From IMG/VR virus record IMGVR_UViG_3300032665_000013: a stretch of 64,000 nucleotides of DNA; one strand, 5' to 3'. This document shows, in pieces, positions 2,732 to 51,871 of the stretch. A program made the translations under genes and the position numbers. The notes beneath the pieces were generated by a model. That model was not told the origin of the DNA, did not search any database, and saw only the letters and a program-made list of their open reading frames with translations. This stretch comes from a virus. Lineage: Duplodnaviria > Heunggongvirae > Uroviricota > Caudoviricetes. The stretch's first letter is position 1. Each line of letters opens with the position of its first letter.

Positions 2732-2776
2732 TAAAAGGTGGAATGTCGTTGTGATGGAGGGCATTCCACCTTTTTC
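2732..2776 (+). terminator. Rho-independent terminator
   Basis: aaaaggtggaatg...cattccacc 10-bp stem followed by TTTTT. Confidence 0.7.
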
Positions 2777-2862
2777 ATAGTTATAATGTGTATAATATAC
2801 GATGAATCGATTATTAGATGTTGACAGTCTAAATTTTATACTCTATAAATAGATATGTAAAT

Positions 2863-2938
2863 GGGGATGTAGCTCAGTTGGGAGAGCAGAAGCTTTGCAA
2901 GCTTAAGGTCAGGAGTTCGAGCCTCCTCATCTCCACCA
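2863..2938 (+). tRNA. tRNA-Ala(TGC)
   Basis: Full cloverleaf read by hand: acceptor GGGGATG/CATCTCC with G3:U70 Ala identity pair, D-arm GCTC-AGTTGGGA-GAGC, anticodon loop TTTGCAA, T-arm AGGAG-TTCGAGC-CTCCT, encoded CCA. Confidence 0.9.
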
Positions 2939-3029
2939 ATTTTTAGGAATTTTATATGAGTGGCAGTTGGATTAACAATAAAAGTCACCAACCATCTGAG
3001 GGATGGGGCGGTTTAAAATAATAAATTAT

Positions 3030-3100
3030 GGGGCTACCGATGGGTCGGGTGGCAGGCTGGCAGTCTACTAACCGGGATTCGATTTCCCGTAGCTCCACCA
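3030..3100 (+). ncRNA. tRNA-like element 1 (acceptor stem + mini D-hairpin + T-arm, no canonical anticodon arm)
   Basis: GGGGCTA/TAGCTCC acceptor with G3:U70, ACCA tail, T-arm CGGGA-TTCGATT-TCCCG. CCGA-TGGG-TCGG hairpin sits directly after the acceptor. The 24-nt middle has no anticodon stem. Confidence 0.45.
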
Positions 3101-3113
3101 AAGTTTTATAGGT

Positions 3114-3169
3114 TCAGCTTGCTCGTGGGAGCTAGTGCATTAAGGTAGATTCGACTTCTACAAGCTGTT
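3114..3169 (+). ncRNA. tRNA-like element 2 (acceptor-like stem + mini D-hairpin + T-arm)
   Basis: CAGCTT/AAGCTG 6-bp stem, GCTC-GTGG-GAGC hairpin, T-arm GTAGA-TTCGACT-TCTAC. Same architecture as element 1. Confidence 0.35.
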
Positions 3170-3492
3170 CATCAATCTCCCTAGAGGGGATCTGGCTGTG
3201 GGTATCTGAAGAGATAAGGTTATGACGGCAGGATACGGGAAGCCAGTCATATAAATTAGAGGATCTTCCTCTGTGAAACATTACAACAAGCTTCAAGTCT
3301 TAATGGCTAAGAAAGCGTTTATATTTTAGGATATAAACACCTACGAAACCAAACGATTTTGCATTTCTAGTAATGGGGAATGGATGAAGAAGATCCTTTA
3401 TTGTATCTTCTATAGCATAATTTAAGATATACGTTGAGATACGTTATTAAGTCTTTATTTTATTGCCAAAGTCGTTTAGACAAGAGAATACA

Positions 3493-3939
3493 ATGTTAAA
3501 GAAAATCGCACTAGGATTAACATTTGCCCTAGCTTTCGTTACCATGGCTCCATCAGTAGCCTATGCAGCAAATAATCAAAATGAAATTAACTGCCTTGCA
3601 CAAAACATATATTTTGAGGCTGGAAACCAACCCGAACGTGGCAAGATTGCAGTTGCAACTACAGTGATGAATAGGATTAGGGATGGCCGATTTGGTAGTT
3701 CCGCCTGCTCAGTTATACATCAAAGAACAAAACGCACTTGCCAATTTTCATGGGTTTGTACACATGCAAAAGTACGAGACAGAAAATTGTATGCAAGCGT
3801 TATCCCAATAGCGGAAAGAGTATATAATGGTCAAACAAATGATCCATCTAACGGGTCATTATTTTTTAGATCAACCCGCTTGACATGCAAACATAGATAT
3901 GCTATAAGAATTGGTCAGTTAGTTTTCTATAAGGTTTAA
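3493..3939 (+). CDS. secreted SleB/CwlJ-type cell wall hydrolase
   Basis: Signal peptide MLKKIALGLTFALAFVTMAPSVAYA. Hydrolase_2 motifs NIYFEAG...ERGKIAVATTVMNR and QFSW. Start moved to the second Met (ORF track 3463). Confidence 0.65.
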   Translation: MLKKIALGLTFALAFVTMAPSVAYAANNQNEINCLAQNIYFEAGNQPERGKIAVATTVMNRIRDGRFGSSACSVIHQRTKRTCQFSWVCTHAKVRDRKLYASVIPIAERVYNGQTNDPSNGSLFFRSTRLTCKHRYAIRIGQLVFYKV

Positions 3940-3942
3940 ATA

Positions 3943-4098
3943 ATGGCAAGTAACGTGTATGATGAATTGGCGATTGATTTTGTTAAAGTCGCCCGCCTAA
4001 ATAAATTCCAAGCAAATATTATTGTAGATTTCTTAAAAAATGAGGGATTTATTGATTATGATCAGTTAAAAGAATATTACGAAGAAGAGTCTGAGTAA
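3943..4098 (+). CDS. small acidic protein (51 aa), hypothetical
   Basis: ATG 3943 to TAA 4096-4098. Stop overlaps the next ATG (TAATG). Below the ORF-track length cutoff. Confidence 0.3.
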   Translation: MASNVYDELAIDFVKVARLNKFQANIIVDFLKNEGFIDYDQLKEYYEEESE

Positions 4099-4328
4099 TG
4101 TCGTCTTTACCTGAGATTAAAGATCTATGCGTTATTTTAGATGGACTAGTTAAAACATATAAGATCCCTTATATGGATGCAGCTATTCATTATTGTGAAG
4201 AAAATGGAATCGAAATAGAAACTATAGCCAAAGCTATAAAATCTAATGAAAAGTTGAGGTCTAAAATCCAAACGGAGGCTGAAGACCTCAACTTTTTAAC
4301 TCAAAAAACAAGTAGAATCGATTTGTGA
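4098..4328 (+). CDS. hypothetical protein just upstream of gene 59 (position of T4 gene 33)
   Basis: 76 aa, translationally coupled on both sides. No recognisable motif. The gp33 idea is positional only. Confidence 0.4.
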   Translation: MSSLPEIKDLCVILDGLVKTYKIPYMDAAIHYCEENGIEIETIAKAIKSNEKLRSKIQTEAEDLNFLTQKTSRIDL

Positions 4329-22921: not shown

Positions 22922-23293
22922 TTATCTTGGTGCTCTTCGCTCTATAACATGATGAATAAATTTCTCAGGAGAAAAATATTTCTCAAATATGGCCAATACT
23001 AACATAGGATCATATGGTTTGCAAGAAAAAATATCAACATAGGCAGAATTGCCGTCAGACGGGCAAAAATGTGCCGATATATTAGAGTCTTGTAAAAGCT
23101 GATAAATGGAGAATCCAACCTTATTAGGATCGTTGGTTTCACACCATACGATTTGAAGATCCCCAATTTTAATCATTTCGATACGTTCAAGAAGTTCATC
23201 TATAAACTTTTGAAATGTTATCTTACAATTAATAGCATCTGAATTACAATTAGATGCATCGATGGCAGTCAACCATCCCCAAGGTTCTTCCAT
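22922..23293 (-). CDS. speD: pyruvoyl-dependent S-adenosylmethionine decarboxylase-like (SpeD/SpeH small type)
   Basis: SNISAHFCPSDGNSAYVDIFSCK matches ESHISIHTWPE.GYAAVDVFTCG of AdoMetDC, with the self-cleavage Ser context. Confidence 0.55.
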   Translation of the reverse strand: MEEPWGWLTAIDASNCNSDAINCKITFQKFIDELLERIEMIKIGDLQIVWCETNDPNKVGFSIYQLLQDSNISAHFCPSDGNSAYVDIFSCKPYDPMLVLAIFEKYFSPEKFIHHVIERRAPR

Positions 23294-23348: not shown

Positions 23349-23519
23349 TTACCAATCTAGGTCATCTTCCTCCATAAGTGCTTCTATATTTCTAGTGTGT
23401 AGAGCATTCCGTATCTTTTTTTCTTTTCGATGGGAATTACGATCAAAGATATCTCGCCTAAAATCTCGAACATCATCATATTCATGACTTTTACGCATAT
23501 CATCTTGGCTCTTAGACAT
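23349..23519 (-). CDS. small charged ORF (56 aa)
   Basis: ATG to TAA. Below the ORF-track cutoff. Confidence 0.25.
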   Translation of the reverse strand: MSKSQDDMRKSHEYDDVRDFRRDIFDRNSHRKEKKIRNALHTRNIEALMEEDDLDW

Positions 23520-23599
23520 TGAAATTAAAACCTCTTCTCAATAAACACAGATTCTTTACTCCTATTTTACTCTGGTGTCAAGGGTATATTCATTCCCTA

Positions 23600-24241
23600 T
23601 TACCCAACCTTCTCCGATTGGTGTGAATTCTTCACATGTTTCGCTAGTGGGCCGGGTAAAAAATTCCCGTCCTCTGCGGATGATATGCAACCAAAAGGGC
23701 ATGGCTTTGCTTTGCTTCTGTCCTTTTTTTCGTCCTTTCCCGATACCACAATCTGTGAAGATTGAAGATCTAAAACATCATCTGTTTTTGTAACATTATG
23801 CTGATTCAAATCTGGCAATAATCCGGGAAATGTGTTATGAACCAAATCATATGTGATATTCTTATAAGGACATCTTTTCTCTTTCATAGCAAGAACAAGT
23901 TCTGCATCGTCTGGATCAAGAGCCTCTAGTAGCTGTACAAACATAGTTTGACGTTTAAGATCTGGAATATTGTCAGCCTGTCCTTTGATGAATAGATAAA
24001 GGGTTCTAGACTCCCTGTAAAGACTTCCTTCACTATCAGCAGCCTTTGGCATCTTTTTAAAGTTAGGTGCGCCTTCAGGAAGGTTAAATACTACGTCAGG
24101 GTGAAACATATACATCAAAATTTGTACGAGTGGTTTAATGCTTGCACATGTACCCAATGCATCTTGGCGTTGTTTAGGATCTTTAATTCCAGAAATAATC
24201 TTGAGAATTTCAGAAATCCCCTGTCTACGCTGTTCAGTCAT
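23600..24241 (-). CDS. hypothetical protein
   Basis: 213 aa ORF. Confidence 0.5.
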   Translation of the reverse strand: MTEQRRQGISEILKIISGIKDPKQRQDALGTCASIKPLVQILMYMFHPDVVFNLPEGAPNFKKMPKAADSEGSLYRESRTLYLFIKGQADNIPDLKRQTMFVQLLEALDPDDAELVLAMKEKRCPYKNITYDLVHNTFPGLLPDLNQHNVTKTDDVLDLQSSQIVVSGKDEKKDRSKAKPCPFGCISSAEDGNFLPGPLAKHVKNSHQSEKVG

Positions 24242-24422
24242 ATTATCATTCGCCTTTTATAATTGTCTTAAATTGTGAAACACTATCAAGAAACATCAAT
24301 TGTTTCTTATGTGGAAGATCATAGAAGTTCTTCTTATTATATAGGAGGCGATAAAATTGAGATGCTTGGGATATTTCTTCACTTGTATACATATCGAGAT
24401 TCTACCTATTCATAAATTTTGT

Positions 24423-25130
24423 TCAAATCAATGCGTTGTTACGAACATCATCAAACAGCTGGTCACGCAATAGTTCACCATCTGAATACACATCTTGCAA
24501 AACATCATCTTCTGCATACATCTCATATTTAACGGGATGGCTCTCCGTGGTATAAGTAAAAAACTTACTATCCCAATATGGGGTATGCTTAAGAATCATT
24601 CGACCCTTCTTAGACCTTTTACCAGAATCAGTAAGAGGATCCTTATACACGTCAATCCATTCACCGTTGATAAATGCCGCCGAACACTTCATTGCAAACT
24701 TTTGATCGTCACGATTAACAATCTGTAGAAGAGCGCCGCCTTGGCCGAATGCCACATTATCAGCACTATAACCAATAGCAATAATAGCATTCAGAATTTC
24801 TTTGATAGTGTCAATAGTAATACCATCGCCTTGAATTACACGAACATTGTTGAGAACCTTATATCCTTTATCATTAATAGCATGCCCAAAATGATAATCA
24901 AGGATTCGGATGCAGCTTTCTACCACTGTTGCTGGATCGCCACTATCTGGGCGGATAACGGTAAACCCACCAAGTTCTCCGTTCAAGATAATCTTCTGTT
25001 TAATTTCAGGATCAGTTCCTAGGAGTTCGCAAAACTCAAAAATATTATAAGTATCTCCTACTATTGCAAAAGTCTTACCACCGGTGCCAAAATTGTCAAT
25101 CATCGTGTTAATGTAGGTTCGTTCACTCAT
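24423..25130 (-). CDS. nadV: nicotinamide phosphoribosyltransferase NadV/NAMPT, C-terminal half
   Basis: TVIRPDSGDP, GYKVLNNVRVIQGDGITIDTIKEIL, AFGQGGALLQ, KDPLTDSGKRSKKGR align with human NAMPT residues about 300-440. Own start ATG 25128-25130 with GGAAAGGAAA SD. Confidence 0.85.
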   Translation of the reverse strand: MSERTYINTMIDNFGTGGKTFAIVGDTYNIFEFCELLGTDPEIKQKIILNGELGGFTVIRPDSGDPATVVESCIRILDYHFGHAINDKGYKVLNNVRVIQGDGITIDTIKEILNAIIAIGYSADNVAFGQGGALLQIVNRDDQKFAMKCSAAFINGEWIDVYKDPLTDSGKRSKKGRMILKHTPYWDSKFFTYTTESHPVKYEMYAEDDVLQDVYSDGELLRDQLFDDVRNNALI

Positions 25131-26206
25131 TTTATATTTCCTTTCCAATCAACTAGTTTAAAAGAGCATCCATTAAACTTAGCGTTTCTTTTTGAATAAC
25201 TATTATATGTGCCTTCTTTGATGGCTATGTTCCATACCCCTTCAGTGCATCTATGTTCTCTCAAAAATGAACCTTTATTACCACAAAAGGTAAACAAAAG
25301 ATTGTCTACCGGGGAATAGCATTCTATTTTCTTGTCAGTAGCCTTCATGTGAATACTAGGATCATACTCATCGCAGTTGATATTCACAAACTTATTCAGT
25401 TCTTTAATAAAGACTGTGACCATCCCCTTTGTTGTTCCATGATCAGGTTTCCTATTTTCTTTGGACGCCAGTGTTGAGTATCTATCCTTATTATGGTAAT
25501 ATTCTTCGGTTGTTACATGACATATTTTATCAGTGAAGGAGTCTTTTACAGTAACCTTACCTGCATGAATGCCATTAAGTTCATGATTGTCTTCTGTAGT
25601 TGCATATCTTCGCATTCCAGCATCATCTATTACTTTCCCTCCAAACACCTTAACATGAACACTAGGATCAAACATGCTAACTGGCATGGAACTTGTTTCT
25701 CCTGTTTCAATAACTCGTACACTAACTTTGCCAGACGATGCGGTGCGATATAGATGTTTATTGTTTCGGTATTCCTCTACGGAAACTCTACAAACACCAC
25801 CAGATGATATTTTTATAACCCGAACACTGTTGCTAGTAGGATAAGCATGAATAGTAGAATCAAACTCATCTTTTGGAATCCTGAAATAAGTTGAATCTTC
25901 TAGCAATCTAACAACAACCGTATTTTTAGTATTCCACCCTCTGCCTCCGGATATTATATTATAAGTATCTACCCTTTTCACGAAATCTTCATTTACAAGT
26001 TCCGCTTCTTTGTTATTCATCTCATCAAACGAATCATACATGTATAATATGCGTCTGCTAAACGCATGAACACCGTATTTTAACAAGGCATTAGTAAAAC
26101 GAGTCCCGGAACCAAGATATCCATCATCAATGTTGGTAGTAGAATGCTGTCCAACATATATCATACCATTGATAGTATTTGTAGTTTCGTATATAATATA
26201 AAACAT
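25127..26206 (-). mobile_element. free-standing GIY-YIG homing endonuclease gene inserted inside nadV
   Basis: MFYIIYETTNTINGMIYVGQHS...GYLGSG. TGA stop overlaps the ATG of the nadV C-half (ATGA). Start 35 nt after the nadV N-half stop. Confidence 0.85.
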
Positions 26207-26240
26207 TTTTAAGTATGCTCCATTGCAGTAACACACTTAT

Positions 26241-26945
26241 TTAGTCCTTTTGGTGACTTGCACTTATAGAATGTTCGCTAGCAGGAATACTAAAACCAGC
26301 CATATCAGCACCATAATACCGACGAGCATACAAAAGAGCTTCGATAGTGTCAGTACCCATGAAGTTGATAAGATGGGCAGATCCGCCAATTCCAGCAGAT
26401 TCCAAACTAGATACGCCACGAGCGCCGAAATCGTGCAATTTAAAATTAATATCAGCGGGTGTGCCAGTATGTTCAAGAGCATCCAAAATCACCTTCTTAA
26501 TTTCACGACTATTGGTTGCTACTGTTGTAGGATACCAAATCGAACGAAGAATAGCAGTTTCAAGAAAACTTGTCAACCAATAACATTTTGGATCTGTGTT
26601 GATGATAGTCGCCAACACATTACGAACAGGAATAACCATTCCCTCTGGAACTGCCTTAATATGAACAGGAAGGCAACCATTATGAGCATGAAGAATATAT
26701 TCCCATCCTTCACGGTTAAATGGTTCACCATGGGCAGTAATAATGGCCTCAGCTTCATCAATCATGTCTTGGGTAATAGGTGCAAGCAAGTATTCCTTGA
26801 TAAATGCTTGGAGGCCAAAAAATACGGTTTCATCATACTTTCCACCCCTACTCTCGATATAACTGTAGATATATTCGGTGTTAGGAGGATATTGATTGAA
26901 CTGGCTGTACTTATACGAATCTGCGTTAAGAATAATATTTTTCAT
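26241..26945 (-). CDS. nadV: nicotinamide phosphoribosyltransferase NadV/NAMPT, N-terminal half
   Basis: ILNADSYKYSQFNQYPPNTEYIYSY, IKAVPEGMVIP, INTDPKCYWLTSFLETAILRSIWYPTTVATNSREIKK, KLHDFGARGVSS are near-identical in pattern to NAMPT residues 10-245. Ends at HQKD where NAMPT continues. Confidence 0.9.
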   Translation of the reverse strand: MKNIILNADSYKYSQFNQYPPNTEYIYSYIESRGGKYDETVFFGLQAFIKEYLLAPITQDMIDEAEAIITAHGEPFNREGWEYILHAHNGCLPVHIKAVPEGMVIPVRNVLATIINTDPKCYWLTSFLETAILRSIWYPTTVATNSREIKKVILDALEHTGTPADINFKLHDFGARGVSSLESAGIGGSAHLINFMGTDTIEALLYARRYYGADMAGFSIPASEHSISASHQKD

Positions 26946-26998
26946 AGTAGCAAAACTCCTTTGCTTGTTAATGATCTTGGTCTGTCCTAGATCAGTCG

Positions 26999-27313
26999 TT
27001 ATTTAGGCGAAAACTTAAAAACCGCATCATAATTTTCATTCCATCCGGGAGAATCATATACTACAGTCCAACCCTGTTGTCTATAAATTTCTTCAATATC
27101 AAGATAATTATTTTCGAATATTTCTACTCGTGTCATCCCAGATTTAATGAGCTTTTCTATAATTGTATTTTGAGAAATTGTAAATGGTCTATTATTAAAT
27201 TCCTTAACAATTAACTCATTAACAGTTTCGATAACAATTTGAGGAATATAATGGACTTTACTAGATAAAGCTTCTTTTGGTGAAATAGGAAGTATATGTC
27301 TAGATGTTACCAT
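26999..27313 (-). CDS. hypothetical protein
   Basis: 104 aa ORF. Confidence 0.45.
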   Translation of the reverse strand: MVTSRHILPISPKEALSSKVHYIPQIVIETVNELIVKEFNNRPFTISQNTIIEKLIKSGMTRVEIFENNYLDIEEIYRQQGWTVVYDSPGWNENYDAVFKFSPK

Positions 27314-27795
27314 TATTCAAACTCCACTAAAGTTACCGAGCCTCCTTGCTCTGTTATCACCTTAGCAAAATCTTCTAGCATAGTCAAGATACGATTTTTA
27401 TCTCCACCAGCAAGACCCATTCCGATATAAGGAAATCCAAATCTAGCTTTACTAAGTGTAGTAAGCTTCTTTAGAATAAGATAGAAGCTCTCATACTCGA
27501 AATGATCAATGCCACGAGGCGTATAGTGGACCTGAGTGTATGCATTGATCACGATGAAATTAAAAGTTGTATACGAGCTAAAGTTGCCAAGCTTAGCGAC
27601 AGGATTCTTCCACTGTTGAGATGCCAAACAATCAGCATCATATGCACCCGGATATCTTGCACGAATTTCCTTGGCAATGCCCCCTGCCATTGTGTTTTGA
27701 CAGTTGCAACCATGTACGATAACATCAAACTCACCTTGTTCGGCAAGATCAATAAGGTTTCCTTTGGTATGTTTAAGCATTGTTCTGACTTTCAA
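27313..27795 (-). CDS. macro-domain protein (ADP-ribose binding/processing)
   Basis: GNLIDLAEQGEFDVIVHGCNCQNTMAGGIAKEI fits the macro domain N-terminal signature (G.I......DAIVN.AN..L..GGGV..AI). Confidence 0.6.
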   Translation of the reverse strand: MKVRTMLKHTKGNLIDLAEQGEFDVIVHGCNCQNTMAGGIAKEIRARYPGAYDADCLASQQWKNPVAKLGNFSSYTTFNFIVINAYTQVHYTPRGIDHFEYESFYLILKKLTTLSKARFGFPYIGMGLAGGDKNRILTMLEDFAKVITEQGGSVTLVEFE

Positions 27796-27967
27796 TTTTT
27801 CGAATTTTCGGCTTCATATTTTCATAAATTATATGACGACAAGCGGCTAATGAAAATGGGTTGTAAGGAACAAAACATCCTCCTGAACCATCATCATTCA
27901 GCGACCATCTAGAACAAAATTCTATACAATCACATTCAACACGATCTGTTGTTTTATCATTTATCAT
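27773..27967 (-). CDS. small Cys-rich protein
   Basis: 64 aa with CDC...C...C...C pattern. Confidence 0.3.
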   Translation of the reverse strand: MINDKTTDRVECDCIEFCSRWSLNDDGSGGCFVPYNPFSLAACRHIIYENMKPKIRKIESQNNA

Positions 27968-28012
27968 AAAATTTATCCCAAATTGCGTTTCGGAATCGAA
28001 TATGGTGGTAAA

Positions 28013-31568: not shown

Positions 31569-32423
31569 TTAGTTGCTAGGAAGCTGGATCATATTGGATG
31601 CATTGCCTGCAACATAAGTTGGCAAATGACCATCCCACTTTTCCAGATACTTTTGCTTCAGAATGTTGGGATTCGCTTCTAGAGCTTGTGCCTCGATCTG
31701 GGTAGCCTTAGCATCACCTGTAGCCTTAGCTACTCGTGCTTCTGCATCAGCCTTGGCAGTTGCGACATTAGCTTCAGCTGCCAGAGCTTGCTGTTGGTTA
31801 GTGATCTTTTGATTGATCTGTGCCATAACAGCCTGAGGAACACGAGGACCGCCAGCCCAATAAAGCTGCTCTACAACCAAACCACGGTCGTTGAAAAACT
31901 TCTGAACATCAACCTGAGTTCGTGCCAAAAGCTCTCCCTTCTTAGCACCATAGATATCTTCAATGCTCATTGCAGAGGCTTGATTAATCAAAGCTCCACG
32001 AATTTCATTGCGAAGTGGTCCAGCAATGATATCGTCCATATCCATACGATAGTTTGTATACAACTTAGGAGCCTTAGATGGATCCACATGGTATGCTACA
32101 CCAATATCTGCTGTAGCACTCATACCGTTACTATCGTTGAACTGAAATTCCTCGTTAACATTATTCCCTTCATTGGAAGAAGCTGTCCAAACATAAGTAT
32201 GAGTCGATACAGGATACTCATAAATCGAAGTGCCTAGTCCGGTAAAATAAGTACCAATTCCCTTAGGATCTGGATCTACACCGGCATTAGAACCCCATGA
32301 GGTAACTTGGATACCCACGTTACCCGGAGCAACCCTCGAACACGCACCAAGACTGACAGCGCAAACGCTAAGCAAAATAATATCACGAATCTTCATTATT
32401 AACATCTTCCTTTTGATTGACAA
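31569..32423 (-). CDS. SPFH/band-7 (stomatin/prohibitin-like) lipoprotein
   Basis: Lipobox SLGAC, then SPFH-like core with Ala/Gln-rich coiled-coil tail. Confidence 0.6.
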   Translation of the reverse strand: MSIKRKMLIMKIRDIILLSVCAVSLGACSRVAPGNVGIQVTSWGSNAGVDPDPKGIGTYFTGLGTSIYEYPVSTHTYVWTASSNEGNNVNEEFQFNDSNGMSATADIGVAYHVDPSKAPKLYTNYRMDMDDIIAGPLRNEIRGALINQASAMSIEDIYGAKKGELLARTQVDVQKFFNDRGLVVEQLYWAGGPRVPQAVMAQINQKITNQQQALAAEANVATAKADAEARVAKATGDAKATQIEAQALEANPNILKQKYLEKWDGHLPTYVAGNASNMIQLPSN

Positions 32424-43752: not shown

Positions 43753-43830
43753 TGGCGAATGCGCTGGGATTCGAACCCAGATTTTCAGTTTTGGAGACTG
43801 ACGTGTTAAACCATTGATCACTACGCAAAC
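43753..43830 (-). tRNA. tRNA-Trp(CCA), acceptor stem with two U-U mismatches
   Basis: Minus-strand cloverleaf: anticodon arm TCAGT-CTCCAAA-ACTGA, T-arm CTGGG-TTCGAAT-CCCAG, encoded CCA. Acceptor GTTTGCG/CGCATTC is weak. Confidence 0.5.
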
Positions 43831-43913
43831 GTGAGGGCAAGGTTTTTTAAAGAAAAACCCTGCAAGAAAACTTAATCTCTGTATTATACCAGAGCAGCTC
43901 TGATGCATGCTAC

Positions 43914-44123
43914 CTATTGTCCGAGATTAACGACATTTTGGTTCTTAATAACTAAATCATTTTTAGTTGCATAATCTATAACATCTGAATAATAAAATAT
44001 TATTCCGCCGCCATCCCGTGGTTTGGTATTCGGTAAAGCTTTAAGAAAGCTAAATGTTTGCGGATAGAAATATTTACTACTATCGAATATATCATCTATT
44101 ATTTCTTGATCGGTCATATGCAA
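43914..44123 (-). CDS. hypothetical protein
   Basis: 69 aa ORF. Confidence 0.35.
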   Translation of the reverse strand: MHMTDQEIIDDIFDSSKYFYPQTFSFLKALPNTKPRDGGGIIFYYSDVIDYATKNDLVIKNQNVVNLGQ

Positions 44124-44124
44124 C

Positions 44125-44310
44125 CTAATTAAAATTATTTATAATTTCTATTATTTCTTTATATTGATGCAGTGAGTTTGCCGATGTGCCTGCCAATATT
44201 ACGACTAGTAATTCTAAATGTTCTCTAGGCATCGTTTTAATATGTTCTATATATTCGTTAAAATCTGGACGATCATGTGACATATTTAATCCCTCATAAA
44301 ATACTAGCAT
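44125..44310 (-). CDS. hypothetical protein
   Basis: 61 aa ORF. Confidence 0.35.
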   Translation of the reverse strand: MLVFYEGLNMSHDRPDFNEYIEHIKTMPREHLELLVVILAGTSANSLHQYKEIIEIINNFN

Positions 44311-44328
44311 ATGAAACGTATATACAAT

Positions 44329-44405
44329 TGGTCGGGAAGACAGGGATCGAACCTGCGACCTGATGCTCCCAAAGCACCCGCTCTACCACCTGAGCTACTT
44401 CCCGA
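44329..44405 (-). tRNA. tRNA-Pro(TGG)
   Basis: Acceptor TCGGGAA/TTCCCGA, D-arm GCTC-AGGTGGT-AGAGC, anticodon loop TTTGGGA, T-arm GCAGG-TTCGATC-CCTGT, CCA. Confidence 0.85.
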
Positions 44406-44425
44406 TATTCTTTATTTAGTTTTAG

Positions 44426-44472
44426 GCGGGAGTGACGATTCTTCACCCGCTCTACCATCTTACTGTCAAGCC
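44426..44472 (-). pseudogene. tRNA-Pro-like 5' fragment (acceptor/D-arm/anticodon-stem remnant, no 3' half)
   Basis: ggcttgacagtaagATGGTAGAGCGGGTGaagaatcgtcac shares GGTAGAGCGGGTG with the adjacent tRNA-Pro. No T-arm or acceptor 3' strand follows. Confidence 0.35.
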
Positions 44473-44548
44473 TTCTATATGACTATTTTTGGCCTTTGTG
44501 ATTGGTGTGCTATTTATTGATCGTTTAACTACACTACTAAAACAATAT

Positions 44549-44630
44549 TGGCACCCTAGGTAGGATTCGAACCCACATGTTAGTTCCAGTTACCTTTCGC
44601 TCCGTTCGTAGCGGAGGGGGATACTAGGGC
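44549..44630 (-). tRNA. atypical tRNA-like element, possible degenerate tRNA-Arg(ACG)
   Basis: Acceptor GCCCTAG/CTAGGGT, T-arm GTGGG-TTCGAAT-CCTAC, CCA. Internal hairpin CTCCG-CTACGAA-CGGAG carries an ACG anticodon. No normal D-arm. 82 nt. Confidence 0.3.
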
Positions 44631-44826
44631 ATTAATTGGTTGCGGTGTCACGGATTTGCACCGGTTTTCTAGGATATGAGCCTAGTGAGATACTGAACCT
44701 CCCACCCGCTATGAAACTCTGTGAAGCCCTTTCAACTTCTTGGATAGCTCCCTTACCGATAGTCTATCTATGTCATCTTCCCGATGCGGGGCTAAGTTTT
44801 TACGGATATTTTCTTAGCATCTAATA

Positions 44827-44901
44827 TGGTACTCGGTAGTGGGATCGAACCACTGACAACTGCCGTGTAAAAGCAGCACTCTACCGCTGAGTTAACCGAG
44901 C
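44827..44901 (-). tRNA. tRNA-Val(TAC)
   Basis: Acceptor GCTCGGT/ACCGAGT (G1-U72), D-arm ACTC/GAGT, anticodon loop TTTACAC, T-arm AGTGG-TTCGATC-CCACT, CCA. Confidence 0.85.
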
Positions 44902-44918
44902 ATTTTTTCAAAATTTTA

Positions 44919-44994
44919 TGGTACGGACGGTGAGGATCGAACTCAACACCTACTGGTTGGAAGCCAGTCACGCAAACCACTACGCCACGCCCGC
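44919..44994 (-). tRNA. tRNA-Gly(TCC)
   Basis: Acceptor GCGGGCG/CGTCCGT, anticodon arm ACTGG-CTTCCAA-CCAGT, T-arm TTGAG-TTCGATC-CTCAC, CCA. Confidence 0.85.
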
Positions 44995-45064
44995 ATGTAT
45001 TTCTAAAGTATATATGTAAATTTATAGGTTGTCAAGTAATATTTTCAATATTTTATAAATAACT

Positions 45065-45829
45065 TTGTGGTTCACGAAGTCCCCACTTCCAACCACCTTA
45101 ACAGCTTTCAAGGAGCATGTCAACATGATTATTTATCTCTACGTAAAACAACATTCCATCACAGGATTAAAATATTTTGGAATGACTACTAAATTAAATC
45201 CCTTTACTTATAAAGGTTCTGGTAAATATTGGTCAAAACATATCAAAAAACATGGTAGAGATTATATTAAAACATTAGATGTTTGGGGATTTGATGACCA
45301 AAAGCTTTGTACTGAGTTTGCTTTAAAATTCTCTCGTGATAATAATATCGTCAATTCTAATCAATGGGCCAACCTTATAGAAGAGATTGGAATTTCTGGA
45401 AGAATTAGAGGGCAGTCGGGATCACCAAGAAGCGAAGAGTGCAGAATAAAAATATCAGAAAAAGCTTTAGGTAGAAAATCTTGGAACAAAGGACTAACTA
45501 AAGAAAATGATCCAAGGGTTGCTAAAATATCACAATCCTTGTCAGGTATAAAGAAAAATTCCGAACATATTGAAAAATTAAAAATTCCTAAATCGGATGA
45601 ACATAAACAAAAAATAAAAGAAATAATGAATAAAGATAAATATAAAAACTTATTAGCAGATAGAGTCAGAGGAATACCAAGAACAGAAGAACAAAAGCAT
45701 AAACAACGATTGGCTATGATAGGTAGACCCGGAGCAAACAAAGGAAAACCTATGTCTGAAGAAAGTAAAAGAAAACTCAGCGAGTCTCAAAAATTAAGAA
45801 TAGCCAAAAGGAAAGAATTATGTCCATAA
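45065..45829 (+). mobile_element. GIY-YIG homing endonuclease (Seg-like) with NUMOD3 DNA-binding repeats
   Basis: N-terminal IIYLYV...GLKYFGMT...GSGKYW. Three NUMOD3-like repeats (SPRSEECRIKISEKALGR, HIEKLKIPKSDEHKQKI, RTEEQKHKQRLAMIGRPG). Confidence 0.7.
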
Positions 45830-46161
45830 ACAATATTAATAAAAAAATAGCGGTCACTGCAACTGATTTAATGGGGACCATGGGAACAGTGTATTTTTTC
45901 TTTTTTTTAGTTATGATACCATTGGTATTCCCCACATTAATGACTCCAATAATGTATATTTCATCGTCTATAATTCAACTTGTTGTCCTTCCTCTTATCA
46001 TGGTAGGACAACAAGTTCAAGGTGAAAAGACAGAAATAAGAGCAATCCAAGATCATGAAACATTGATGGCAGAATTAGCTGAAATCAAAGAAATTCATTC
46101 AACTCTCAATCAACTTCATAAGGATAAAGCTGGATGTGGTTACGTCTCTGTCTCTTCTTGA
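45820..46161 (+). CDS. membrane protein
   Basis: Two long hydrophobic helices. Confidence 0.45.
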   Translation: MSINNINKKIAVTATDLMGTMGTVYFFFFLVMIPLVFPTLMTPIMYISSSIIQLVVLPLIMVGQQVQGEKTEIRAIQDHETLMAELAEIKEIHSTLNQLHKDKAGCGYVSVSS

Positions 46162-46718
46162 TCTTAAATATTATTTTATGTAGTAATCCAACATTCGGTC
46201 AAACTATAACTGCTGATAGGCCGGGTATTGGTGCGGATCCTGAAACTGTTCCACAATATACATTACAACCAGAGATGGGAACTGATTCTAAAGAAATTCG
46301 CCTTGGGGTATTAAAAGGATTTGAATTGGATCGAGATGACACAAGCTGGGGGGCCAAGGTATCACTAATAGATAATGATACATTTAAATCATCTCTAAAA
46401 ATATCATATGATGAAACTCTTAAAACTGTGGTAGAAATTCCTTCCAATTATACCTACAACAAATGGTTTAATTTAGGAACAGATATTTCTATCTCTAAGA
46501 CAGTTAAGATATACGCTGGCGAATTTAATTTTACTCCTACTTCTACCTTAACAATCAGTCCAACTGTATATTTTGATGGTAAACCTAGAGTAGCGGCTTT
46601 TGTAGCATGGATACCACTTAAACATCAAAATATACAATTCGATATCGGATATGACAAGAAAAAGTTTAGTATTGGAATAAGCACGGCTTTAAATTTCAAA
46701 GACATATTTAAAAAATAA
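46134..46718 (+). CDS. secreted beta-rich protein
   Basis: N-terminal signal sequence MWLRLCLFLILNIILCSNPTFG. Alternating beta pattern. Confidence 0.5.
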   Translation: MWLRLCLFLILNIILCSNPTFGQTITADRPGIGADPETVPQYTLQPEMGTDSKEIRLGVLKGFELDRDDTSWGAKVSLIDNDTFKSSLKISYDETLKTVVEIPSNYTYNKWFNLGTDISISKTVKIYAGEFNFTPTSTLTISPTVYFDGKPRVAAFVAWIPLKHQNIQFDIGYDKKKFSIGISTALNFKDIFKK

Positions 46719-46861
46719 AGGGTTTTTCCTAGCCGGAACGCACTCTACCCTTAAACGTTTTATTAACTTGGCTGCGACAACCGGAATTGCACCGATGTTT
46801 TCCTAACATAACCTACCCTAGGATTGTAGGTACGCTTATTTAGAAGCTTATATCACAAAAT

Positions 46862-47068
46862 TTATTCTTGTTTTTCGGCCATCCAATTTTCTGCAAAATT
46901 CATTGCATCTTTTCTTGAAGAAAGATTATATGCAATCATTTTATTATCGAATATGAAACTCCAAGTAAGATTTACATTATTACGCACGATATCAATATAG
47001 ATGTTATTTTTGTAAACACAAAGATCATAATCAGGATACTTCAAATCTTCTTGATTCCAGTCTATCAT
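46862..47068 (-). CDS. hypothetical protein
   Basis: 68 aa ORF. Confidence 0.4.
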   Translation of the reverse strand: MIDWNQEDLKYPDYDLCVYKNNIYIDIVRNNVNLTWSFIFDNKMIAYNLSSRKDAMNFAENWMAEKQE

Positions 47069-47116
47069 AATATTACCCTTCCATTTGTCAAAGTCTGAAA
47101 CTTATCTGACTTTGGA

Positions 47117-47470
47117 TCATATTCTTCCCAATCTTTTAGCCCAAGGACCTCTAAATGTCAAGAGAAAAGTAGTACCATTTGAATCAACTTTATGAAAATC
47201 TTCTCGTCTAGTTATAAATGGTTTCAAACTTGGTTTATGCCAAACCCATCTACCACCTAAAAAAGTTTCTGTCAATCTTCCATAAAGAACCCATGAAAAG
47301 CAATTGAATGCATGAGAATGAAACATTTCTCTCGATTTGCCTTCAAATTTCAAAAGCGCAATTGAAAAAACATTTTTCCATTCTATCAACCAATATCCTG
47401 TAACAGTGGATTCTGGACCGCCATCTTTCATAATTTTAAATAATTTCATATTCCATCCTAACAGCTTCAA
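47117..47470 (-). CDS. hypothetical protein
   Basis: 117 aa ORF. Confidence 0.45.
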   Translation of the reverse strand: MKLLGWNMKLFKIMKDGGPESTVTGYWLIEWKNVFSIALLKFEGKSREMFHSHAFNCFSWVLYGRLTETFLGGRWVWHKPSLKPFITRREDFHKVDSNGTTFLLTFRGPWAKRLGRI

Positions 47471-47717
47471 CCAACTTTCGTCTGTGGGTCTTTCGGGGAT
47501 TCTGGTTTAATGGAACTACTATAATCCCTTTTTCGTAATATAACAGGCTGCGCTGTGCTTAACCGGGACCACCCGCACACCGAATCGAACGGTTCAGACC
47601 TCTTGTTCAAAAAAGTATTTTTTAAATGCGGTAATCAGCCTAATATCACAGGATTGCTTTTGTCCGCTAAGACACCCAAAGTTATAGCGTTTTTATTTGC
47701 TGTAACAATCCTAAAAC

Positions 47718-47791
47718 TGGCGACTCTGACGGGACTCGAACCCGTCTTCACCGGTAGACAGCCGGTGGCCTTCCCTGACGGCAACAGAGCC
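47718..47791 (-). tRNA. tRNA-Asp(GTC)
   Basis: Acceptor GGCTCTG/CAGAGTC, anticodon arm ACCGG-CTGTCTA-CCGGT, T-arm ACGGG-TTCGAGT-CCCGT, CCA. Confidence 0.8.
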
Positions 47792-47796
47792 ATTAT

Positions 47797-48039
47797 TTAA
47801 TATTTAGATAGGTTTCTGATAGGAATTATCTTATCTTCTCCATCTTTATATGTCACTATTACACATGCCTCGTCGTAATATGTACAAAATTCAGAAATAA
47901 TAGCCAGTTGACATCCAAATTTATTGGTATTTACTAGCACCATTTCCCCAACTTCATAGTTCGTTTGGGCATGTCGACCGTGAGTTGGAATTGCATCGAT
48001 TAGAATTGGTTTCATAAAACTTCTCCTTACCATCTGCAA
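47797..48039 (-). CDS. hypothetical protein
   Basis: 80 aa ORF. Confidence 0.4.
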   Translation of the reverse strand: MQMVRRSFMKPILIDAIPTHGRHAQTNYEVGEMVLVNTNKFGCQLAIISEFCTYYDEACVIVTYKDGEDKIIPIRNLSKY

Positions 48040-48073
48040 TAAATCATTTTCAACACAAAGTCAACATAAAAAT

Positions 48074-48158
48074 TGGTGGGTAAGTGTGGACTCGAACCAC
48101 TCCCGGTTAAGGTCAGGTTTTACAGACCGTCTGCTAGAACCCCTAGCTTTACCTACCC
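48074..48158 (-). tRNA. class-II-length tRNA-like gene, anticodon unresolved (possible Tyr GTA)
   Basis: Acceptor GGGTAGG/CTTACCC, T-arm GTGG-TTCGAGT-CCAC, CCA, 85 nt. A CTGTAAA loop is present but its flanking stem does not pair. Confidence 0.4.
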
Positions 48159-48165
48159 ATAAATG

Positions 48166-48242
48166 TGGTGCCTCTCCGAGGTTTCGATCCCCGTTCTTCC
48201 GCTCTTCAGGCGGACGCTATGACCACATCAGCTAAAGAGGCA
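48166..48242 (-). tRNA. tRNA-Phe(GAA)
   Basis: Acceptor TGCCTCT/AGAGGCA (U1-A72), anticodon arm TCCGC-CTGAAGA-GCGGA, T-arm CGGGG-ATCGAAA-CCTCG, CCA. Confidence 0.8.
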
Positions 48243-48467
48243 CTCTATTAAACCATCCGTAGCATGAGGATTCCTACCCCGCCCAACCAATCTTAGCTAT
48301 TCAACTATGAATGCCCATCGCTACGGTGATGGGTGGCCTCTTACTCTGTGTTTCGAGTTTCGAACCTCTACACACATATAAAACTGGTCTAGGTGGTGGG
48401 TAACGCTCCCACGATCCGGTGGTTCCAAACCACCGTTTAGCCCTTGCTATCTCACCTAGATATTATA

Positions 48468-48544
48468 TGGTAGCGATGGAGAGATTCGAACTCACACTGT
48501 TCTGGTTCTAAGCCAGTTGTCTCCTGCCGTTGGACTACATCGCC
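48468..48544 (-). tRNA. tRNA with TAG anticodon (Leu-decoding) but short class-I variable arm
   Basis: Acceptor GGCGATG/CATCGCT, anticodon stem CTGG/CCAG with loop CTTAGAA, T-arm GTGAG-TTCGAAT-CTCTC, discriminator A, CCA. Confidence 0.5.
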
Positions 48545-48545
48545 A

Positions 48546-48998
48546 CTATCTTTTTTGTGAATGGCAATTTGGACATAAAAATTGTAAATTTTCAGGTGAG
48601 TCATCCCAATGTTTTTCATTGATATGATCAATTTCTAAAATCAATTTTTTATTATTCCAAAAAGATTCAATTTTACATTCATTACATATTTCTGGTATCC
48701 CTAAAGCAATTAATCCATTTCTTAAATGGGATGCTTTTTGTCTTCCAGAATTTATATCTCTTGTAACTAAGCGTTCGATAGGATTTCTCTTATTTAGAGA
48801 GACTTTTCCTTTATTCCAAGCTTGACCAGTCATATGAGACAAATCAATTTGAAATTTCGAACACACACGCTTTAAATGACTTATGTTGCCTCCGACAGAC
48901 CTCTTGTCACATTTCCTCAAAACTTCAGATAAAGACATCGAATCTGCTACTATTAAAGCTAATTCATCTTTTTTATAATTATTATATTTTTTATTCAT
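48546..48998 (-). mobile_element. HNH homing endonuclease
   Basis: C-terminal HINEKHWDDSPENLQFLCPNCHSQK. Immediately abuts a tRNA. Confidence 0.7.
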
Positions 48999-49380
48999 TG
49001 ATTACTCCATTAGTAGAGTAACTATTTATATAATATTGTATATTTACTAATCTAAAATGATTGATGTTTTCTTGCTACGCCCTTCTAGCTTAGAAAAAGT
49101 TTATCAGGCTAACATCAATCATTTTAAATCTGGTTCCAATATATAGTCACCAGCAACCTTTAAAACACACTTTAAAACACAAAAATAATTACAATATCCA
49201 ATAAATTAATAAAAATATTAAGTTAGGGCATAATAACTTCTCCTATTTATAAAAGAATTCGTATTAAGATTTAGCTAGAATATATTATATTGCATTTATT
49301 GTCAAGAGAAAATTTCAGTGTACAGAAACTTTCAAACTCTATCTCGGAGCGACCGAACATTCTCCCCCTAGGGAGCTTAC

Positions 49381-49456
49381 TGGTGGACCATCTCGGGTTC
49401 GAACCGAGGACATACGGATTAAAAGTCCGCCACTCTACCTACTGAGTTAATGGTCC
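49381..49456 (-). tRNA. tRNA-Lys(TTT)
   Basis: Acceptor GGACCAT/ATGGTCC perfect, D-arm ACTC/GAGT, anticodon arm GCGGA-CTTTTAA-TCCGT, T-arm CTCGG-TTCGAAC-CCGAG, CCA. Confidence 0.9.
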
Positions 49457-49487
49457 AATTAACTGTTCAAACGGCTGTAGACAAAAC

Positions 49488-49736
49488 TTAATTTGTCTTA
49501 ACTTGTCTTAAATATTCCAACACTTCTTCTTCAGTATCATATACTTTGATATGTGTCAAAGGATTTCTTAGTGCTACATGAATTTTAGACCCAAATTTAC
49601 GGATTATTCCATATCCTTCAAATCTTCCTTCACCAGCTTGTCTATTATTCCAACGAGTCCTATACCTATAGGGAAAAGGTTCGCTATTATAGTCTACATT
49701 CAATATTTCTGCACATTTTTGATAAAAACTTTTCAT
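49488..49736 (-). CDS. hypothetical protein
   Basis: 82 aa ORF. Confidence 0.4.
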   Translation of the reverse strand: MKSFYQKCAEILNVDYNSEPFPYRYRTRWNNRQAGEGRFEGYGIIRKFGSKIHVALRNPLTHIKVYDTEEEVLEYLRQVKTN

Positions 49737-49767
49737 ACCAATTATATAGTATAGTTTTTATATTATG

Positions 49768-49971
49768 TCAAGATAAAAGTTCAATTTCATCTTCATTACA
49801 AGGACATGTAACATGATCAAAAAAAACGTTTTTATCATCAAATAGTACATCATATGGCCAACGAGTTGTGTTAACTATACCTACAATAGTCCCAGCTCTT
49901 GTTGTTGCTCCTTCGAAATTGTAGGAACATTTTTTGGTGGCTATGATTTTATCTCCTACTTTAAATTTCAC
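49768..49971 (-). CDS. hypothetical protein
   Basis: 67 aa ORF. Confidence 0.4.
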   Translation of the reverse strand: MKFKVGDKIIATKKCSYNFEGATTRAGTIVGIVNTTRWPYDVLFDDKNVFFDHVTCPCNEDEIELLS

Positions 49972-49973
49972 GA

Positions 49974-50678
49974 TTACGCTGCCTTTTTGAAGAGGAAAAA
50001 GCTTTCGTGCTGTGGATAATTATCCACAAATTTACGAGCATAATATGAAATATGGTTATTGCTAATCTTGAAATCTGGGATATCCCAACGAATTCGTTCA
50101 ACAATGGTCTTAGGTGAAATAGTTGTGTGACCACGATTCATCGCACGAAATGCATACGACTTAAAGAGAGTATACACATATGGATTCTCAGTGTCAAACT
50201 TTGTAAAGCTTTCAACCAAAGAATTATCTTTAGTGGCATTCGCTGGCTCTTGTGCTGTAGGTGTTTCTACAGGTGACGATACAGCTTCAACCAATACAAG
50301 ATCATTCTCATCAAAAGCTCCACGCCCCTTAAAGGAGTCAACACAAGTATAGGCATACTTATCGCCTGCCCATACCTTGTATACTGTCATATTCTTCCAA
50401 ATGGGATACTTAATAGAACTGACCTTATCACCAACCTGAAACTTAGTTGGGGTTACCTTTGGTTCTTCGATTTTCTGAGGAACGAGAAAGATTTCATCTA
50501 GTGCAAACAGAGTTGCACTATAACTTGAATGAGTTCCTACCAACTTTGCTCGAATTGGATATGGTCGGCCATTTAGAACTTCCATAACTTCCAAATCTTT
50601 GTCAGCCAAATCAGAAAATGGATATTTACCATTTTGCTTCGTCTGACGCACAATATCACCAATCTTATAATAAACCAT
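49974..50678 (-). CDS. hypothetical protein
   Basis: 234 aa ORF. Confidence 0.5.
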   Translation of the reverse strand: MVYYKIGDIVRQTKQNGKYPFSDLADKDLEVMEVLNGRPYPIRAKLVGTHSSYSATLFALDEIFLVPQKIEEPKVTPTKFQVGDKVSSIKYPIWKNMTVYKVWAGDKYAYTCVDSFKGRGAFDENDLVLVEAVSSPVETPTAQEPANATKDNSLVESFTKFDTENPYVYTLFKSYAFRAMNRGHTTISPKTIVERIRWDIPDFKISNNHISYYARKFVDNYPQHESFFLFKKAA

Positions 50679-50744
50679 AATATATTCTCCGTTTCAATAT
50701 GAGGGCATTATACCCTGTTTAATAACTCTTGTCAACTCTTTTTT

Positions 50745-50816
50745 TGGTGGCTGGTAGTGGATTCGAACCACTCTGAGAGGCTTATGAAACCTCTTTAATC
50801 ACCAGATCGACCAGCC
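50745..50816 (-). tRNA. tRNA with CAT anticodon (Met or lysidine-Ile)
   Basis: Acceptor GGCTGGT/ACCAGCC, anticodon arm GAGGT-TTCATAA-GCCTC, T-arm AGTGG-TTCGAAT-CCACT, CCA. Short D-arm. Confidence 0.75.
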
Positions 50817-51037
50817 ATTGTGTTTTTAATCTTAGATTGTTCTATAACCAAATCAAGTTTATTTCGAAGGTTAATTGCATCAATTATTACCTGAAAATCC
50901 CCTCCTGCTATAGGTTTATTATTTTCAATTATATCATATGCATCTTTTTGATAATCCATAAGAGATATCTGTAGTTGTGTCATAAGTTTAGTAATAACTC
51001 GACCATCAACCCATGTTACGGTATTAGTCCTTTTCAT
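50795..51037 (-). CDS. hypothetical protein
   Basis: 80 aa ORF. Its 3' end overlaps the tRNA. Confidence 0.35.
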   Translation of the reverse strand: MKRTNTVTWVDGRVITKLMTQLQISLMDYQKDAYDIIENNKPIAGGDFQVIIDAINLRNKLDLVIEQSKIKNTMAGRSGD

Positions 51038-51044
51038 AATATAA

Positions 51045-51094
51045 AACCTTTAATGGTGCCGATGGTTAGATTCGAAACACATATATAGTTGCGG
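51045..51094 (-). pseudogene. tRNA 3'-half-like remnant (T-loop plus acceptor 3' strand plus CCA, no 5' half)
   Basis: TTCGAATCTAACC-ATCGGCA-CCA on the minus strand with no complementary 5' strand upstream. Confidence 0.3.
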
Positions 51095-51866: not shown

Positions 51867-51871
51867 AAGGT

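Follow-up and report, generated by a model that had tools for sequence, protein, structure and literature searches.

A phage nadV gene encoded in two pieces, probably split by a free-standing GIY-YIG homing endonuclease gene

In the 64,000-nucleotide (64-kb) stretch of phage DNA analysed here (hereafter the window; IMG/VR virus record IMGVR_UViG_3300032665_000013, Caudoviricetes), nadV, the gene encoding nicotinamide phosphoribosyltransferase (NAMPT/NadV), is present as two open reading frames (ORFs), and a third ORF, encoding a GIY-YIG homing endonuclease, lies between them. This locus raises the question of how the gene came to be divided and whether its parts can still make up one enzyme. 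An initial annotation, based on the letters of the DNA, had described nadV as cleanly split into two translationally coupled cistrons by a homing endonuclease gene (HEG), and the present analysis leads to a similar answer: with a probability of about 0.82, this is a gene in pieces made by a free-standing GIY-YIG HEG. The class of HEG-split genes is already known; what is new is the host gene, which belongs to NAD+ salvage and anti-defence, the endonuclease subfamily, whose repeat domain is uncharacterised, how widely the split occurs, and the series of invasion, decay and loss with the split retained. The features concerned are the following, with positions counted in the window.

26945 to 26241, minus strand: nadV N-half (NadV-N), 234 amino acids (aa) plus stop; stop TAA at 26243-26241, tail ...PASEHSISASHQKD (FSIPASEHSISASHQKD)
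NadV-N motifs, minus strand: DSYK, HDFGARG, GTDT and EHS, the EHS histidine being His225 (26273-26271); NadV-N covers NAMPT_N and the beginning of the catalytic barrel
26240 to 26207, minus strand: spacer of 34 nucleotides (nt) from the N-half stop to the endonuclease ATG
26206 to 25127, minus strand: GIY-YIG HEG, 359 aa; ATG at 26206, TGA at 25129-25127
25138 to 25143, minus strand: Shine-Dalgarno-like AAGGAA, 7 nt 5' of the C-half ATG, within the last endonuclease codons
25130 to 24423, minus strand: nadV C-half (NadV-C), 235 aa plus stop, starting MSERTYINTM
NadV-C motifs, minus strand: RPDSGDP (residues 60-66, 24953-24933), QGDG and GQGG; the C-terminal part of NAMPT
24970 to 26310, minus strand: putative mobile cassette (co-conversion tract), comprising the ~22 last N-half codons, the spacer, the HEG and the ~52 first C-half codons

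The order of N-half, endonuclease ORF and C-half was found as annotated, including the ATGA in which the C-half ATG and the HEG TGA share bases, and the HEG ATG begins 35 nt past the last base of the N-half stop, as had been given; the endonuclease, put at 360 aa, has 359. Regarding translational coupling, the claim stands for the HEG/C-half junction, where the genes overlap, but not for the N-half and the HEG, which are 34 nt apart. The HEG is read in another frame than nadV and its ORF is delimited by the stop of the N-half and the start of the C-half; an in-frame GTG at 26236, upstream of the HEG ATG, is not used by homologues, all of which begin MFY or MYY. The HEG is free-standing, with its own start and stop and outside any intron or intein. 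DNA nearly identical to positions 24300-27100 was not found in GenBank phages.

The two nadV ORFs jointly span the whole enzyme, and the match is far beyond chance. Pfam assigns NAMPT_N (9.6e-32) and NAPRTase positions 1-59 to the N-half and NAPRTase positions 110-222 (3.6e-32) to the C-half, so that both ORFs together cover the full-length NAMPT profile of NAMPT_N followed by the NAPRTase-family barrel. The N- and C-halves correspond to positions 13-260 and 263-493 of PHROG 448 (nicotinamide phosphoribosyl transferase; 500 positions), and to residues 19-248 (E 4e-82) and 259-476 (E 1e-58) of Xcc NAMPT in the PDB (7YQO). From EHS to VSD/VGD, by our own count, there are 36 residues in intact proteins (Synechococcus phage B23 gp49, Ralstonia phage RsoM2USA_14 and 70-odd metagenomic NadV sequences) versus 37 in the two window pieces. 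The halves therefore match NAMPT/NadV contiguously in PHROG 448, 7YQO and intact phage NadV, which agrees with the alignment proposed initially, with its claim of a clean split without residue loss (profile position 260 is followed by 263, and the total excess is one residue), and with its placing of RPDSGDP in the C-half.

All NAMPT catalytic motifs (DSYK, DFGARG, GTDT, EHS, RPDSGD, QGDG and GxGG) are readable across the two halves, and the Trp of the TSWG motif is His in the window. NAMPT is an obligate dimer with active sites at the interface. In human NAMPT numbering we take the motifs to hold Asp16/Tyr18, Phe193/Arg196, Asp219, His247 and Arg311/Asp313, and residues acting across protomers, such as Tyr18' of DSYK, presumably sit in the N-half, hence both halves would contribute across the dimer. 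A model of the fused N- and C-halves has a predicted local distance difference test score (pLDDT) of 92 and a predicted template modelling score (pTM) of 0.91, with TM-scores of 0.93-0.95 to 7YQO and 0.93 to human NAMPT. Model confidence is lowest (67) at residues 221-240, and the junction 234|235 falls inside the loop 231-236 between two helices; the break point of nadV is thus the loop just past the catalytic-histidine motif EHS. The two polypeptides would be translated separately and would associate non-covalently as an (N.C)2 NAMPT.

Regarding the intervening ORF, its GIY-YIG identity, as first annotated, is upheld by a match to PHROG 314 ('homing endonuclease') at 2.7e-30, by tblastn of the first ~150 residues, which retrieved Seg-like GIY-YIG genes of T4-like coliphages and of Aeromonas and Vibrio phages at ~1e-22, and by Foldseek on the AlphaFold2 (AF2) model (pLDDT 84.5), for which the three best PDB matches were the I-TevI catalytic domain (1MK0/1LN0; prob 1.00, TMt 0.61-0.65). 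Pfam at default settings assigned no family to the product; metagenomic homologues carry the domains PF01541, PF19835 and PF07460 (NUMOD3). The catalytic features of the GIY-YIG family (the tyrosines of GIY and YIG, an Arg/His, the catalytic Glu and the Asn) can be read as YIIY...IYVG...E67...N83, and Y17, G19, H21, Y30, G32-S33-G34, E67 and N83 do not vary among 31 aligned full-length relatives. The catalytic domain takes up residues 1 to ~92 (26206-25931). Residues ~93-359 (25130-25930, minus strand) form 7-8 tandem modules of ~30 aa, each a beta-hairpin (with a short helix) of the pattern G-x-V-[ST]-V ... [YF]-[DN]-x-x-x-H. This C-terminal repeat region of ~265 residues was confidently modelled and had no PDB or Pfam match; the modules are probably a previously undescribed modular DNA-binding domain. 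One module is missing from the HEG copies of the window and of the related loci L003 and L006.

The split is not confined to the window. The full-length HEG family comprises about 30 clusters (32-93% identity, 359-411 aa), and among 15 fetched loci with a full-length HEG, 14 have it between a nadV N-half of ~235 aa and a C-half of ~225-231 aa. The loci with the split layout, drawn from ENA, JGI, Logan and IMG/VR, are L003/4/5, L006, L087 (304-kb contig), L088 (92 kb), L089/90 (323 kb), L091, L092-95, L097 and L173/174, and no fewer than 11 independent loci from metagenomes have the three-gene layout. Of the 120 best N-half relatives in a set of 5.8 billion proteins, 107 reach EHS, and 37 of these carry the split-type EHS[IV]; 27 of these 37 clusters end no more than 13 residues past EHS, mostly in ...[YFH]G[KR]-stop, and 10 have longer, group-B-type tails (own counts; prevalence figures are from word-seeded searches). 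The best C-half relatives are mostly proteins of 224-241 aa that begin at the junction. More than 70 relatives have an intact nadV (449-486 aa), and relatives were either intact or identically split; close relatives with the halves as unrelated separate genes would have refuted the initial annotation.

Comparison of these loci shows that the HEG family is present essentially only at this nadV site. Neither the full-length HEG nor the split-type junction was present in the cultured phages of the GenBank set searched, NadV is a single polypeptide in KVP40 and every cultured-phage homologue examined, and no report of a split nadV was found in the searchable literature. In L096 (HEG at 1517-2683, nadV at 2747-4099; same contig as L061), a HEG of 42% identity is intergenic, directly 5' of a nadV that is intact, with the junction EHSCVTSWGRDNEV. 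This position may be the ancestral free-standing place of the family.

How the split reached different nadV genes is indicated by the comparison of the window with L003. Their nucleotide identity is 91.1% (1210/1328) across 24981-26310; outside this cassette it is 71.5% for the remaining N-half and 59.6% for the remaining C-half. The change is abrupt at both borders (~26310 and ~24970-25000), which adjoin FSIPAxEHS and RPDSGDP, the two most conserved nadV motifs. The proportion of differing synonymous sites (pS) is 0.33 in the cassette flanks and 0.32 in the HEG, corresponding to synonymous divergences (dS) of 0.44 and 0.41, while the backbones are saturated at 0.84 (N) and 0.91 (C). Because the differing sites are synonymous, stronger constraint is ruled out as the explanation of the identity of the cassette, and as its dS is far below that of the backbones, its ancestor is much more recent than that of the host genes.

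The same mosaic structure is seen against other alleles. The N-half of the window is 85% identical to the intact L007/L008, 84% to L003 and 65-73% to the fetched split alleles outside its own lineage. In sliding windows, the window and L003 keep to the type of the intact L007/L013 (~90%) until ~15 residues before the junction; from residue -11 to about +50 they are 59-77% identical to the split L087/L088 versus 31-56% to intact genes, and from +55 the C-half of L003 matches the intact L013 at 86-97% identity. The heads of split-type C-halves have common indels (+2 'DP', +3 'ELG') and substitutions relative to intact genes. Comparison thus shows horizontal movement of a ~1.3-kb cassette into intact-type nadV backbones, and this pattern is the footprint expected of homing with co-conversion. 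In a neighbour-joining (NJ) tree of N-halves, split alleles are scattered among the intact ones, at 25 or more distinct positions. A single split clade, as from one ancient split, was considered and is rejected by this tree, for reasons that the mosaic analysis explains.

Further loci indicate what may follow invasion. In L003 (5838-5900), L004 and L005, a 2-nt deletion in the YIG motif (ATATATGTTGG to ATATATTGG) frameshifts the HEG, which in the L003 type is 93% identical to the window copy. The deletion is common to three independent assemblies, and the L003-type HEG is therefore regarded as a decaying copy; both nadV halves are intact in L003 and L004, and L005 is a 1.4-kb contig ending before the C-half. 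L171 (4191-4298) and L172 have a split nadV without the HEG, on four contigs including one of 87 kb. L171 is collinear with L173 save for a deletion of ~1151 bp, the ends of which share TGCTC/TGTTC microhomology, and which joins the last 13 HEG codons to the N-half tail, the N-half stop overlapping the C-half ATG by 8 nt. The halves are kept in L171/L172 and L003 without a working HEG, so nadV remains in two pieces without the endonuclease. Comparison of these loci shows that the HEG may decay or be deleted after invasion while nadV stays split with intact half ORFs. Regarding selection, the comparison of the window with L003, which is entirely post-split in the cassette flanks, gave a ratio of nonsynonymous to synonymous divergence (dN/dS) of 0.06 in these flanks and 0.09-0.14 in the HEG; by this measure both halves are shown to evolve as expected under purifying selection.

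In the proposed mechanism, the HEG product would cut the intact nadV of co-infecting relatives between EHS and RPDSG, and repair off the HEG-bearing genome would copy the cassette in, which would amount to intronless homing with co-conversion, FSIPAxEHS and RPDSGDP supplying homology for the repair. Besides the HEG, the cassette brings along the recoded end of the N-half including the stop codon, a ribosome-binding site plus ATG and ~52 recoded C-half codons, and the recoded flanks and indels would make the split allele immune to cutting. Each homing event would install a stop, a ribosome-binding site, a start and ~70 recoded junction codons, with the two small insertions common to split alleles among them, and would thereby turn an intact nadV into a working two-subunit enzyme. 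As precise reversal is improbable, the split would outlive the endonuclease, as in L171. We are slightly inclined to view the cassette as a self-propagating gene-splitting unit that would drive heritable, irreversible nadV fission across an uncultured clade of T4-like/jumbo phages.

The HEG ORF might instead lie within a group I (or II) intron, the splicing of which would yield one full-length NadV. Many phage GIY-YIG endonucleases, e.g., I-TevI, are intron-encoded (PMC2988022), and an insertion within a conserved active-site region is typical of introns; this explanation is nevertheless very improbable, since Rfam with a permissive threshold gave nothing at E<=1 in window positions 23500-28000, no Rfam intron model reached its gathering score in 11 related loci (tRNAs only), and non-coding sequence is limited to 34 nt on the upstream side of the HEG ORF and 0 nt on its downstream side, with no ribozyme core (P3-P9) found flanking it. 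Moreover, the stop of the N-half is kept across very divergent loci, as are the Shine-Dalgarno and ATG of the C-half, and the ORFs of the HEG-deleted L171, overlapping by 8 nt in different frames, leave no room for an intron. The initial annotation had likewise argued against an intron, and the Rfam null and the total of 34 nt outside ORFs bear it out. A split intein is expected to lengthen the N-half by roughly 100 residues and the C-half by roughly 35. Neither an intein-N at the end of the N-half nor an intein-C at the start of the C-half was found; the halves stop and start at adjacent NAMPT positions with one residue of total excess, and the model of the fused sequence is a full NAMPT without surplus residues. 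These findings make it hardly credible, and of all the alternatives the least probable, that nadV is a 'fractured gene' in which split-intein fragments on the halves flank the HEG and mediate protein trans-splicing, although an order of enzyme, free-standing endonuclease and enzyme is on record from phage metagenomes (Dassa et al. 2009, PMC2677866) and the relatives L065 and L070 have a probable intein elsewhere in nadV.

Regarding function, the HEG insertion may have killed nadV and left two decaying, functionless remnants, as could be argued from the change of the conserved TSWG Trp to H/Y/F in split alleles and from the C-half having diverged more than the N-half. The greater conservation of the N-half is, however, equally true of intact relatives. 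Both ORFs are intact in all ~12 loci examined and in dozens of protein clusters, every catalytic motif is retained, the C-half Shine-Dalgarno and ATG are conserved, and the halves outlast the loss of the HEG in L171 (4 contigs); together with the dN/dS of the post-split cassette flanks and with the pN of 0.17-0.32 among split lineages (pS saturated), this renders decay improbable, and both nadV halves look functional. Unlikely, though less so than decay, is an ancient split inherited only vertically, with an immobile HEG and with mosaics made by ordinary phage recombination instead of homing. It would account for HEG proteins of distant lineages being just 35-48% identical, for the synonymous saturation among most split lineages and for the frameshifted HEG copy of L003. 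Against it, the recombinant tract of the window and L003 is centred on the HEG, as double-strand-break repair predicts, and ends at conserved motifs, ~60 nt before the stop codon of the N-half on one side and ~150 nt inside the C-half on the other; the cassette (dS ~0.4) is far younger than the host backbones, split alleles are interspersed with intact ones in the N-half tree, and the dN/dS of the HEG argues that the protein is still under selection.

Several points weigh against a gene split by a mobile HEG, which we nevertheless prefer. The window HEG is without the TATAAATA-containing element present upstream of distant copies (see below). The NJ trees are without bootstrap support, and the C-half tree was built with an incomplete motif filter that missed many split C-halves; it was replaced by the sliding-window and dN/dS comparisons. 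Most split lineages are synonymously saturated, which makes vertical descent and repeated homing indistinguishable there, and L171 versus L173 yields a pN/pS of merely ~0.3. Regarding the endonuclease, Pfam at E<=10 yields only a sub-threshold SegE_GIY-YIG match for the window HEG (E 0.018), and Foldseek gives I-TevI a weak E (0.02), as the match is limited to ~95 of the 359 residues.

The split of nadV by a HEG, with a gene that is contiguous in relatives divided into two ORFs, the HEG exactly between them and no residues lost, has the form of known genes in pieces, and the analogy with nrdA/mobE and 39/60 drawn at the outset was apt (PMC2988022). In Aeromonas phage Aeh1, the nrdA-a/mobE/nrdA-b arrangement retains split-enzyme function (Friedrich et al. 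2007 PNAS, summarised in PMC2988022). As there, the free-standing HEG interrupts a nucleotide-metabolism gene at a functionally critical place in a T4-related phage, with no intron or intein. Aeh1 nrdA is known to give two separately translated, reassembling polypeptides, as the nadV halves presumably do; mobE is of the HNH family and its host gene is nrdA, whereas here a GIY-YIG gene is in nadV; and the Aeh1 case is a transposition-like insertion in phage Aeh1 (PMC2988022), whereas the nadV split is found in at least 11 loci and dozens of protein clusters. Unlike Aeh1, nadV also has a defined co-conversion cassette that is seen to have moved into intact-type alleles, and a HEG-less split derivative.

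Two cistrons around a free-standing HEG, as here, are also found in T4 39/mobA/60, in Aeromonas phage 25 43A/seg43/43B (PMC2988022) and in Felix O1-like nrdD (PMC4837284), and seg43 encodes, like the nadV HEG, a Seg-like GIY-YIG enzyme; for gene 43, it is uncertain whether the HEG caused the split (PMC2988022). The host genes of these cases differ, none belonging to NAD+ salvage or anti-defence. The T4 SegA-G enzymes (PMC2988022) share with the nadV HEG a homologous N-terminal domain, a free-standing gene and the co-conversion of flanking markers, but Seg genes are usually intergenic and cut hundreds or thousands of bp away, whereas the nadV HEG lies inside its presumed target and its tract is short (~60 nt and ~150 nt). 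Fractured genes (Dassa et al. 2009, PMC2677866), which likewise come from phage metagenomes, have the gene order of nadV but rely on split inteins, half of the loci having a Vsr-like endonuclease; nadV has no intein fragments, and its halves therefore cannot be ligated, and its endonuclease is of another family. Regarding the role of the enzyme, the NARP2 pathway, in which NadV/Nampt and a nicotinamide mononucleotide (NMN) adenylyltransferase rebuild NAD+, evades NAD+-depleting defences (bioRxiv 10.1101/2024.02.11.579819). KVP40 NARP2 has the same enzyme family, a nearby NadM/NatV-like partner and the presumed role assumed here, with NadV as a single polypeptide.

If the split arose and spread as proposed, nadV would be a natural, population-scale case of monomer-to-heteromer evolution and, following nrdA, 39/60, gene 43 and the nrdD case on record, the fifth HEG-split host gene, more widespread by a wide margin than any of the others. 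All stages of a HEG life cycle would be represented on one target: intact nadV, the adjacent free-standing HEG (L096), the active-looking HEG (window), the frameshifted HEG (L003) and the deleted HEG with the split kept (L171). Because the cassette borders are defined within tens of nucleotides, the homing site is directly testable. The loop past the catalytic histidine would be a permissive break point, and the co-evolved junction sequences could serve the engineering of split NAMPT. For annotators, nadV fragments of ~230 aa in phage metagenomes would be real two-piece genes, not truncations.

Regarding expression, the spacer (26240..26207) holds a GGAG (26221-26218) 11 nt 5' of the HEG ATG, and an AAGGAG 7 nt 5' of the C-half ATG is conserved in L087, L088, L089, L091 and L093, and every group-A C-half has this motif at about that distance; in distant relatives the three genes stand apart from one another, with an AAGGAG Shine-Dalgarno belonging to the C-half itself. 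The C-half would start from its own Shine-Dalgarno and would also be coupled to HEG termination through the ATGA. A scan of 24200-27400 for sigma-70 promoters and terminators was no better than shuffles, and neither was a hairpin predicted over the HEG GGAG (z = -0.77).

A conserved CTGCTCTGTTGCAGAAATCGTATAAATACAT element precedes the HEG ATG in distant relatives, and the spacer of the window is a degenerate copy of it. The pre-HEG element, of ~30 nt, reads (A)CTGCTCTGTTGCAG(A/G)AAT(C)GTATAAATACAT and combines a small palindrome with a T4 late-promoter-like TATAAATA. Its sites are L087 4709-4752, L088 4712-4761, L089 4712-4765, L091, L093, L097, L173 and L096 1452-1484. Its DNA is conserved though the HEG proteins are merely ~40% identical, and in L173 part of it is translated as the N-half tail. 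As the L096 copy, outside nadV, has the same element, the element belongs to the HEG. The T4 late-promoter consensus TATAAATA is not enriched in the window (11 found versus 13.2 expected), and no late-promoter claim is therefore made for this phage.

Other interruptions of nadV were also seen among the relatives. In L065 (5001-7325, 775 aa) and L070 (4965-7316, 783 aa), nadV has a 312-aa in-frame insert exactly within RPD|SGDP, which starts with Cys, ends in ...SGN and is followed by Ser, with a sub-threshold match to Pfam Intein_splicing (E 0.002); this insert is a probable intein. As RPDSGDP also marks the downstream border of the cassette, the active-site motifs of nadV seem to be a hot spot for different mobile elements. 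In L064 (5001-5770), an intact-type nadV is interrupted after ...KPGALLDV by a premature stop or a frameshift, with the C-terminal part in another frame, and is either a pseudogene or a sequencing error. P0187, P0195, P0198, P0204 and P0205 are intact-type NadV proteins of 289-409 aa on long contigs that end in unrelated sequence, and they may reflect frameshifts or other interruptions at different nadV positions; the set of short NadV proteins includes one labelled Marinibactrum halimedae.

Regarding the neighbourhood of nadV, the following further genes were detected in the window.

22922-23293: AdoMet decarboxylase-like gene
27795 to 27313, minus strand: Macro-domain gene
31153 to 30056, minus strand: gene for a NadM/NatV-like adenylyltransferase-Nudix fusion (CTP_transf_like and NUDIX)
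31569-32423, minus strand: gene for a Band_7/SPFH protein

The Macro-domain, NadM/NatV-like and Band_7/SPFH genes form an NAD+/ADP-ribose module near nadV, and a NadM-like gene precedes nadV in nearly all related loci. Together with the NadM-like and Macro-domain products, the split NadV would rebuild NAD+ during infection in the manner of NARP2. The phage itself is an uncultured, distant T4-like myovirus, the nearest tail protein being 33% identical to that of Caulobacter phage Cr30, and ARAGORN detected 18 tRNA genes (43753-62320 and 2863-2938), mostly in a minus-strand cluster at 43.7-62.3 kb.

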